NCBI GenBank assembly: GCA_965224715.1
Contig: OZ245054.1
Span: 648,933 to 712,932 of the forward strand
Length of the DNA stretch: 64,000 bases
Origin: Spirochaetota bacterium
Lineage (GTDB): Bacteria > Spirochaetota > UBA12135 > COTS27 > CAXSBA01
Direction of reading: 5' to 3'
A program made the translations under genes and the position numbers. The notes below the pieces were generated by a model. The model was given only the letters and a program-made list of their open reading frames with translations, was not told the origin of the DNA and searched no databases. Below are positions 56,040 through 59,000 of the stretch, piece by piece (within the stretch, counting starts at the first letter, position 1; each line of letters opens with the position of its first letter).

Positions 56040-59000
56040 ATGTATATAAAAAGCAATCCAATCAAATTATATAAAAACAGTATGTCTAGAGTCATTTATT
56101 CCATGATCTGTTTACTGTTGATCGGACTTTACCTGTCCTGTGGAACAACAGATGACGGAGGCACTGCTCCCAGCATAAGTTATGATTCTCTGGGGATCTC
56201 GTCTTTTTCTGCTGTGGATGGCAACGGAAGTCCAATTAACGACACCAATGCCATACCGGTGGATACCTCATTTTTGTTGACATTCGATCAGTCACTAGGA
56301 AATATGGATAGTCATGTCAACTCTTTAACCGGCCAAATAGAACTCCTAGATATGTGGGGGGGGGGGGGGGGCAATCCCATTACTTTAAAGATTGAACCTA
56401 CTCAAACAACTAATCAAATAAAAATAGCTCCAACAACTGATCTAAGCTACCACATCACCTATCAACTAACTGTAAAAAAAAATTTAACTATCGGTAACTA
56501 TCGGGTTACTAATAACATAGCTTACCTCATCACCACTGAAAAGAACTCCGACAGTTCCCTTATCGTCATTTATAATGATGAAACAATTTCTCCTAACGGA
56601 AACAACATTACCATACTCTTGCCGACAGGAACTGATGTAAGTAGTGTTATGTTCACTCTGGAAGTAGGTGAAGGAGCTGCCCTCCAAGATGGTAATAACA
56701 AAGATCTAACATTGAATGAAAACAGACAATACACCACCAATATGGACTTCAATAATGGTGCTACTCATAATTTTACCGTAACAGCCCAGGATGGAATTAC
56801 CTCTGCCACTTATGCCGTAGGAGTATTAGAGCAACAAACGGGCAGCAAAGAGATTATCTCGTTTACTTTTCGAGAAACAGATAATCCACATCTGAAAGAG
56901 AATATTGCAATGGATATTGATCCTAATAGTCGGGCTATAACTAAGACGGTTACCAATGTGGAAAGTTGGACGACTAGTTTAATTCCAACTATTGTCCATA
57001 GTGGATCAAATATCTCTCCAGTTTCGGGAGTAGCTCAAGATTTCTCTACGAATAATACCTATACGGTAACCGCAATTGATGGCACTACATCCGATTACAC
57101 GGTAACCCTAACCAGTTACTATGGAGTAACCTTCAATGCTAACGGGGGACTTATAAATGGTGACCCTACTGTTACCGAATATATCCTTTATGGAGAGAAA
57201 GCTACCCAACCATCAGATCCATCTCAGGAACATTATGGATTCAAAGGATGGTATGATGCTCCTAGTGGAGGGAATACTTTTGACTTCAATACTCCCATTA
57301 CTACCCAAACCATAGTCTATGCTCAATGGACTAATAAGCAATATAAGGTGAGCTTTGATACGGATGGAAAGAGTGCTATTGGCCCCGTAACGGTAAATAG
57401 TTTAGCCCCTGTACTTAAGCCTGTTGATCCTACTACAAATCATTATGCTTTTGAGGGCTGGTATAGGGACAGTGCTTTCACTGTCCGATATGATTTTAAC
57501 TGGGTGGTAAGTAATAACCTTACCCTGTATGCGAAATACGGTCGCAAACAATATCAGGTTAGGTTTTACCAAGGAACCGATCTCTTAGACACTATCTTGG
57601 TTGTTAGCTTGACTACGATCCCTGCATTAAATTATCCTACTCCTTCTGCTGCAAAGCAATTGTATAAGTGGTATAGCGATAGTGGTTTAGCAAATGCTTA
57701 TGATAAGAATTCTGAGGTAGTCGGCAATCTTGATCTTTATGCTGAGGTTCTTACTACAGATGGTACATTTAAGAGTATTATTGAAAATGGAGTTATCCCC
57801 TCCGATCTTGCTAACTATGATGATATGAGCGAGATGATCTTTTCTCATTATATAGCAGGAGCTGATGTAATTACTCGTTATGTGAAGGAAACTGGTTTTC
57901 TTTCTGGTGGTGGGGGTTCTTGGGCTAATGCCAGTGGAGATATACAGGCGATGATAGATGGAATCAATGATGCTAACGAGAGTAGGATCTATGTGGTATT
58001 GGTGGCATCGGGAGCTTATAGAGCTTCTCTTGATGGTTATGTTATGAAAAACCATGTAGCCTTAGTAGGTGGTTTTACCGCTGGAAGTTATGATCGAGTG
58101 AGAGAAACCCACCTCGATGGTCTAGGTGCAAGATCGGTATTTTTTAATATCAATAATGGTAATGCCCTTGACAGTACAGCTCTTCTCTATGGAGTGGTCA
58201 TCACTAATGGTAATGCTGGAGGTGGAGGTGGGATGAATAACTATAATTCCTCCCCTACCTTGATCAATGTTACCTTTTCAGGTAATGAGGGTGGTTGGGG
58301 AGGCGGGATGCGAAATGCTGCTTCCTCTTCTCCCACCTTGATCAATGTTACCTTCTCGGGTAATAGGGGGGCTGATAAGGGGGGAGGGATGTATAATGAA
58401 AATTCCTCCCCTACCTTGATCAATGTTACTTTCTCGGGTAATAGGGGGGCTGATAAGGGGGGAGGGATGTATAATGAAAATTCCTCCCCTACCTTGATCA
58501 ATGTTACTTTCTCGGGTAATAGGGGGGCTGATAAGGGGGGAGGGATGTATAATGAAAATTCCTCCCCTACCTTGATCAATGTTACTTTCTCGGGCAATAC
58601 GGTTGATAGTGGTGGGGTAGGAGGAGGGGTCTATCATGATGGTAACGGACAACCACTCACCTTGATAAATATGGTTTTGTCGGGGAATAATGCTGGAAAT
58701 ATCTATTTACGCAATGATAACGCCAATACAGAAACTGTGAATTTGTATTACTCCCGTATTTTTGAAGGGGTTAATGCTTCCACCACTGCAAACGGGATTC
58801 GTTTAGAAAATGATGATGCCGTCACCTATCCTGTTGCCATTAATAGCAAGGAGGTTATTGACGATAATCCCGGACTGGGCAACTTAGCTGATAATGGAGG
58901 TGAGATTAATACCATCTCTATCGGCAATAATAGCCCGGCCAAGGATAAGGGAGTCTATGTGAGGGGAGTGAAGAGTGAAACAGGGAATCCTTATCCGGAA

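Follow-up and report, generated by a model that had tools for sequence, protein, structure and literature searches.

Why should a gene for a large lipoprotein keep 16 consecutive guanines inside its reading frame? The question is raised by a homopolymer (G16) in a gene of 1044 codons, found in a 64-kb stretch of DNA (64,000 nucleotides (nt), analysed here as a whole and referred to as the window) from an uncultured spirochaete. The source is a 2.11-Mb contig (2,112,975 bp) that encodes approximately 31 paralogues of the gene product. The G16 tract is most likely a true contingency locus of the slipped-strand type and would be one of many switches in a mosaic family; the evidence for this comes from the sequence of the tract itself and from the fate of the same site in the paralogues.

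Within the window, the number of G runs declines smoothly up to a length of seven (7017, 2035, 484, 124, 35, 14, and 3 runs for lengths 1-7) and then leaps to a single run of 16, resulting in a bimodal distribution. G16 is the sole G run longer than seven, and with G making up 20.8% of the bases, only 6.4e-7 runs of 16 or more would be expected per window. The tract is read as ATG TGG GGG GGG GGG GGG GGC AAT, in which W106 and G107-G111 (codons 106-111 of the 1044-aa product; aa, amino acids) are encoded. When the gene was rebuilt in a simulation with G10 to G22, a full-length product was obtained only at G10, G13, G16, G19, and G22. The G17 product ends in …GGGGGQSHYFKD and the G15 product in …GGGGAIPLL, each followed directly by a stop. 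The remaining Gly runs of the protein are written in mixed codons (GGA GGT GGA GGT GGG, among others) and the tract alone is pure GGG; thus, the homopolymer, not the peptide, appears to be the thing that is conserved. The initial annotation had described exactly 16 G, far beyond chance, in frame and coding for one Trp and five Gly, with the gene ON in the present assembly, and had counted stops eight codons after G17 and five after G15; the run counts, the translation, and the simulation agree with it on all of these points. Its placement of the tract after the first domain does not hold, as the tract lies inside that domain, 72 residues past the predicted lipidated Cys34 and within a weak match to Big_5.

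The same site was followed across the family by protein database searches. A homologous poly-Gly tract occupies the same codon position in at least 14 paralogues of the source genome, the window gene being one of them; five are in frame, and nine are stopped directly past the Gly run, in two wrong frames. With random frames, 4.7 of 14 copies would be expected to be ON, and the observed 5:9 is close to the corresponding 1:2 ratio, with all three frames represented. P0003, P0004, P0007, and P0250 read through the tract as …QIELLDMGGGGG(C)NP…, and P0005 is in frame with an interrupted run (GGRGG). Other paralogues have ordinary short turns at the tract site (DVDNN, MEGS, ENDN, TGNTGNG), and four are without the N-terminal domain altogether.

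The OFF copies are represented by two sets of proteins. A search with the first 129 residues only recovered nine N-terminal fragments of 99-143 aa, each consisting of the leader, the lipobox, and the start of the domain, and each ending right past the Gly run (Table 1). The tails of these fragments correspond, in paralogous form, to the two wrong frames that the simulation gave for the window gene, and the immediate stop found in five of them would be expected if a T follows the tract (G(n)-TAA-TCC). The wrong-frame copies have five or six Gly ahead of the frame shift, and their tails imply tract lengths of approximately 15 to 19, provided that GGG is used for every Gly, as it is in the window. 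The second set comprises nine N-truncated products that are open over 821-957 aa (P0010, P0011, P0015, P0017, P0252, P0018, P0019, P0021, and P0022), most of which begin with MFTLEVG or MLFKG, corresponding to the first main-frame ATG past the site of the tract. The matching counts (nine and nine) and the boundaries of the two sets suggest that each N-terminal fragment adjoins an N-truncated remainder in the genome.

Copies with the same or almost the same flank differ in frame. From the lipidated Cys to the tract, P0250 (ON) and P0125 (OFF) have no mismatch in 74 positions, and P0122 and P0249 have none in 72 while being in different wrong frames; P0250 and P0251 differ at one position of 74 and carry five and six Gly, respectively. 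Identical flanks with different frames indicate that the frame change is very recent and recurrent. Such a pattern is expected of a contingency tract that is hypermutable, and neither a fixed Gly linker nor an assembly artefact would give it. Three of the features by which contingency loci are recognised are found here: an over-long, uninterrupted repeat, an intragenic position at which truncation comes early, and, as judged from the proteins, tract frames that differ amid conserved flanks. The reading of the tract as a slipped-strand ON/OFF switch on an adhesin-like lipoprotein, first made in the initial annotation, is therefore supported by the paralogues, with their OFF copies stopped in the two wrong frames that it predicts.

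In the proposed mechanism, slipped-strand mispairing during replication would add G's to the run or remove them. Lengths of 3n+1 (13, 16, 19) would keep the frame and yield the lipoprotein of ~1040 aa with four, five, or six glycines in a loop of its first Ig (immunoglobulin)-like domain, while any other length would lead to a stop 5-8 codons on and leave a lipopeptide of ~80 residues. Should the tracts switch independently of one another, many different combinations of the large Ig-like/beta-helix proteins would be on display within a single clonal population. Switching is presumably reversible and frequent, and it is plausible that the variation serves evasion of immunity, phage, or predators, or altered adhesion.

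A wider claim may be built on the same observations, namely that at least 14 independent switches form a dedicated surface-variation system, which would occupy ~4-5% of the 2.1-Mb genome. In a lineage-private family of ~31 genes, phase variation by poly-G, with as many as 2^14 ON/OFF combinations, would be joined to segmental gene conversion. We regard this as unlikely in its entirety; the many-switch family itself is largely shown at the protein level. In a further form of this claim, the G15-19 runs, which are G-quadruplex-capable, may also seed recombination, or transcriptional slippage may give graded expression.

Another possibility is that the tract is a mutational hotspot without function, the OFF copies being redundant paralogues that undergo pseudogenisation and no reversible switch being maintained. 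Nine of the 14 tract-bearing copies are broken, remnants of the family are present (P0126, 221 aa; P0257, 68 aa), and the 5:9 ratio would equally fit neutral frame drift. However, all nine remainders found are still open over 821-957 codons in DNA of 37% GC, the tracts have stayed long and uninterrupted in 14 copies, P0005 having the only interrupted one, the Gly run has remained pure GGG, and copies with the same flank differ in frame through very recent and recurrent change. Decay of this kind is therefore quite unlikely to account for the locus.

The tract lengths may also be consensus or polishing errors, in which case all copies would be in frame and the tract would encode a fixed Gly5 loop. 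Conserved codons do flank the tract, at a site that is homologous in 14 genes, and the inferred lengths of 15-19 cover all three frames and have no systematic bias of +1 or -1. In addition, homopolymers elsewhere could be compared with an independent assembly. A short-read contig from Logan (L006, SRR14371676), reached through a SecY that is 100% identical, aligns over its positions 1..20087 to 35774..55870 of the window at 95.5% identity, across the ribosomal operon. Within the genes of the 20 kb shared by the two, no homopolymer differs in a way that would break a frame. An A12 at 47983..47994, in frame near the 5' end of the gene for ribosomal protein S11 (rpsK), where lysine codons abound, has the same length in both. 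This agreement is a partial control and indicates that the assembly is not riddled with homopolymer errors. Runs of G15-G19 are nevertheless error-prone on every platform, both long G/C runs of the window are exactly 16, and the poly-G tracts of pmp genes in Chlamydia psittaci, in frame when sequenced once, were frameshifted in a separate sequencing effort (PMC3323650). Even with wrong lengths, a G16 run would be hypermutable, as is generally known of simple-sequence repeats. On balance, mis-calling is a very unlikely explanation for the pattern.

Least probable of these is that the tract acts as a rheostat, with slippage of RNA polymerase or ribosomal frameshifting restoring the frame in some transcripts. 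Long homopolymers are known to cause transcriptional slippage, and it would be compatible with the frames that stay open downstream in each of the nine OFF copies; graded expression does not exclude switching at the DNA level, and we consider it highly improbable as the explanation in its own right. A read-end poly-G sequencing artefact can be rejected, as the tract lies internally, keeps the frame, and has homologous counterparts in the paralogues, and so can a structurally required Gly5 linker, given the codon purity, the frame-shifted paralogues, and the tract-less paralogues with ordinary turns.

Several points weigh against the slipped-strand switch. The ON/OFF calls rest on assembled lengths of G15-G19, the hardest bases to call, and the G16 length at the window locus comes from one assembly of a single strain. 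The tract lengths of the paralogues and the adjacency of fragments and remainders were read from protein ends and from counts that match (nine and nine), and one of the remainders, P0010, starts with MGNPITLKV, which does not fit a simple long tract upstream. Surface exposure is predicted solely from the spirochaete-type lipobox and the domain types.

The tract was also sought in related strains. L006 ends ~170 nt upstream of the lipoprotein gene; in a multicopy family, a short-read assembly is expected to break at such loci, which explains why this contig ends where it does. In a second dataset (L007, SRR29726839), SecY is 88% identical and the gene order is the same up to miaA, and the fetched stretch ends before the position of the lipoprotein gene. 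Together, L006 and L007 place the lineage in at least two other public datasets. Look-ups of the exact products for the window protein, P0001, and P0010 gave no match. A tract-spanning pattern with variable G length gave 0 matches in a metagenome scan, look-ups of ProB, AroC, shikimate kinase, and a Bor-like protein of the window to reach the tracts in another strain returned nothing, and none of the related loci fetched contains a G/C run of nine or more.

The family appears to be confined to its lineage. A full-length search recovered 27 paralogue clusters at 50-75% identity, all on the 2,112,975-bp contig, and outside this contig a HMMER scan of 1.84 billion representatives with the N-terminal 180 mature residues gave nothing below 1e-10. 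Scans with the family alignment returned only relatives at 30-38% identity among genome contigs (Bacillota and Treponema metagenome-assembled genomes) and distant relatives only among metagenomes. SecY is 66-75% identical to proteins of uncultured 'Spirochaetota bacterium' entries and 52% identical to that of Brachyspira; judged from sequence, the window is from an undescribed spirochaete lineage that is only distantly related to Brachyspira.

Blocks of identity among the paralogues (P0001-P0027) are arranged as mosaics. Between P0005 and P0006, identity is 57-87% at residues 22-200, rises to 98-100% at 246-620, and falls to 60-70% at 700-940; between P0006 and P0008, it is 100% at 70-200 and 69-88% at 246-470. 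A second layer of variation, in which paralogues exchange segments by gene conversion, is suggested by this pattern.

The architecture of the window protein runs from a signal peptide and lipobox through an Ig-like domain, a DUF5018-like region, Listeria-Bacteroides repeats, and a beta-helix with rungs of 26 aa to a choice-of-anchor Q C-terminus (Table 1). The spacing of the Shine-Dalgarno-like sequence makes the ATG at 56040 the likely start; the longer database protein P0001 is 100% identical to the window protein and is located on the 2,112,975-bp contig. The leader is basic and hydrophobic, and its end resembles spirochaetal lipoboxes, a motif from which the product is predicted to be a lipoprotein. 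Together with the domain types (Ig-like, Flg_new, PMP-type repeat, choice-of-anchor Q), this spirochaete-type lipobox suggests a location at the cell surface. PF09479 scores 107.7 bits (cut-off 27) in two copies and TIGR02543 scores 21.6 bits (cut-off 20.95), which places the protein among those with Listeria-Bacteroides repeats, and Pfam matches to DUF5018 are weak. Chlam_PMP (PF02415) scores 17.7 bits in the window protein, below its cut-off of 20.6, and lies above it in P0002 (29.3) and P0004 (27.4). Three copies of the 78-bp repeat are identical to each other. The number of rungs varies widely among the paralogues, whose products range from 795 to 1328 aa, and repeat expansion and contraction may thus also vary the protein.

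An AlphaFold2 model built on the paralogue alignment was poor as a whole, with a mean predicted local distance difference test (pLDDT) score of 58.8, and of reasonable quality in the N-terminal domain (62-83). In this model the Gly run is flanked by a strand at 109-113 and another at 125-129, and pLDDT drops below 50 at 117-119 (P0001 numbering). The run is therefore predicted to be in a beta-hairpin loop of the first Ig-like domain, a site that should tolerate extra or fewer glycines. A fold search with the full-length model returned weak, generic Ig-like and beta-helix matches, which were not used to assign function.

Table 1. Features of the lipoprotein gene and its G16 tract (window coordinates), with the endings of the nine N-terminal paralogue fragments.
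Feature	Position	Strand	Basis or detail
G16 homopolymer	56356..56371	+	Last two bases of W106, G107-G110, first two bases of G111
TAA stop at tract length 3n (e.g. G15), …AIPLL then stop	56386..56388	+	Simulation; paralogue fragment P0122 ends …VIPSL then stop
TGA stop at tract length 3n+2 (e.g. G17), …QSHYFKD then stop	56393..56395	+	Simulation; paralogue fragments P0121, P0123, P0124 similar
Lipoprotein gene, 1044 aa	56040..59174	+	Open reading frame; alternative upstream ATG 56013 gives 1053 aa, the database protein P0001
Shine-Dalgarno-like GGAGG	56029..56033	+	6 nt ahead of ATG 56040; read from sequence
Predicted signal peptide and lipobox (…LLLIGLYLS-C34)	56040..56141	+	Translation; motif conserved in paralogues
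N-terminal Ig-like domain containing the tract, aa 64-149	56229..56486	+	Pfam Big_5, E=0.0011, below cut-off
Listeria-Bacteroides (Flg_new) repeat, best-scoring, aa 435-499	57342..57536	+	Pfam PF09479, E=3.2e-31, 2 stretches
78-bp tandem repeat, 4.7 copies, 26-aa beta-helix rungs (SSPTLINVTFSGN…GGGMYN), Chlamydia-PMP-repeat type	58230..58599	+	
Choice-of-anchor Q match, aa 943-974	58866..58961	+	NCBIfam NF041518, E=2.5e-10, 40.4 bits, cut-off 25
Fragment P0121			Ends …GGGGGESHHFKD then stop (ESHHFKD)
Fragment P0123			Ends …GGGGGQPHYFKG then stop (QPHYFKG)
Fragment P0124			Ends …GGGGGGQSHYFKG then stop (QSHYFKG)
Fragment P0122			Ends …GGGGGVIPSL then stop
Fragments P0125, P0247, P0248, P0249			End …GGGGG, immediate stop
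Fragment P0251			Ends …GGGGGG, immediate stop

The neighbours of the gene are housekeeping genes: upstream are priA, manC, miaA, and a gene for a MoxR-like ATPase, and downstream are proB and trkH. Of the 16 blocks of 4 kb in the window, 15 have a positive GC skew (the exception is -0.04 at 24-28 kb), even where the genes are on the - strand (e.g. 1-8000), and the + strand, which bears G16, is thus probably the leading strand. The only other G/C run longer than seven in the window is a C16 at 11531..11546, 104 nt past the 3' end of a 23S rRNA gene and 114 nt before an open reading frame at 11660..11971. The latter encodes a predicted lipoprotein of 103 aa that matches Pfam Lambda_Bor, a serum-resistance lipoprotein family, at 30 bits (cut-off 25). 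A -10-like TATAGT (11560..11565) lies 13 nt downstream of C16, which would place the run in the -35/spacer position, and a scan for consensus promoters found no standard site at C16. This run is a candidate for a promoter-type phase switch like the poly-G tracts of T. pallidum. The 23S rRNA gene (8527..11427) stands alone, as a scan of the window at Rfam gathering thresholds detected neither a 16S nor a 5S rRNA gene beside it; the ribosomal-protein operon is also in the window, and the only tRNA gene is at 32169..32241.

How does this family compare with known systems? In Chlamydia, long poly-G tracts lie in frame in several pmp genes and have been found frameshifted from one sequencing effort to the next (PMC3323650). 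The Pmps are the closest parallel in organisation, being a large family of surface-protein paralogues with short beta-helix repeats of the GGx…FxxN type. Unlike the present family, they are autotransporters that lack a lipobox and end in a beta-barrel, whereas the spirochaete proteins have an N-terminal lipobox, Ig-like domains, Listeria-Bacteroides repeats, and a choice-of-anchor Q C-terminus. The two families are from different phyla, and the share of tract-bearing, frameshifted members is much higher in the present one (14 of ~31). Outside the short repeat no homology to Pmps was detectable, and neither an autotransporter nor a Pmp-middle domain was matched in the window protein (Pfam, NCBIfam). 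Membership in the Pmp autotransporter family was therefore rejected, as the protein lacks the beta-barrel and its C-terminus is choice-of-anchor Q.

Intragenic simple-sequence contingency loci are classical in Campylobacter, Neisseria, and Haemophilus (PMC4965091, PMC11868660), and C. jejuni NCTC11168 alone has 29 poly-G/C tracts of at least seven (PMC4965091). These bacteria share with the present family a G/C homopolymer in the 5' part of the open reading frame, a change of +1 or -1 that leads to an early stop, and many loci that yield combinatorial phasotypes. Their tracts are, however, usually 8-13 nt long and located in unrelated genes (glycosyltransferases, receptors, restriction-modification). 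The presence of G15-19 at one homologous codon position of a single paralogous family indicates that gene and switch were duplicated as a unit. In the opa genes of Neisseria, which encode small beta-barrels, CTCTT repeats are located in the region coding for the signal peptide, and every copy switches independently. As in the present family, a multicopy set of surface proteins has its own in-frame 5' repeat in each copy, and the opa paralogues are shuffled by recombination, comparable to the mosaic blocks seen here. The opa repeat differs in being a pentanucleotide in the leader peptide of a small beta-barrel, as opposed to a homopolymer in a mature-domain loop of lipoproteins of ~1000 aa.

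Within the same phylum, Treponema pallidum has length-variable poly-G tracts of 7-11 G by the outer-surface protein genes tprE/G/J, tp0126, and tprL, where they are in promoters and modulate transcription (PMC7864442, which also mentions Opa). Here too poly-G is tied to genes for outer-surface proteins, but the treponemal tracts studied are promoter-located, whereas the G16 tract is inside the open reading frame and would act through a shift of that frame. Closer to the treponemal type is the C16 that precedes the Bor-like gene (11531). A search of the literature on poly-G in spirochaetes turned up only the work on T. pallidum, in which the tracts studied are in promoters (PMC7864442).

If the switch reading is correct, an uncultured spirochaete with a small genome spends ~100 kb on ~31 large lipoproteins, about half of which would be gated by their own poly-G switches, with segments shuffled among them. 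While the slippage mechanism itself is familiar, being that of a known type of contingency locus, an intragenic switch that is family-wide would be new for the phylum. We know of no earlier lipoprotein family in spirochaetes with intragenic, translational poly-G phase variation, and the present one would be the first, a convergent parallel to the chlamydial Pmps and the neisserial Opa proteins. In that case, the nine split genes should not be annotated as dead pseudogenes, and the stochastic expression of these proteins must be taken into account wherever they serve as markers or antigens.

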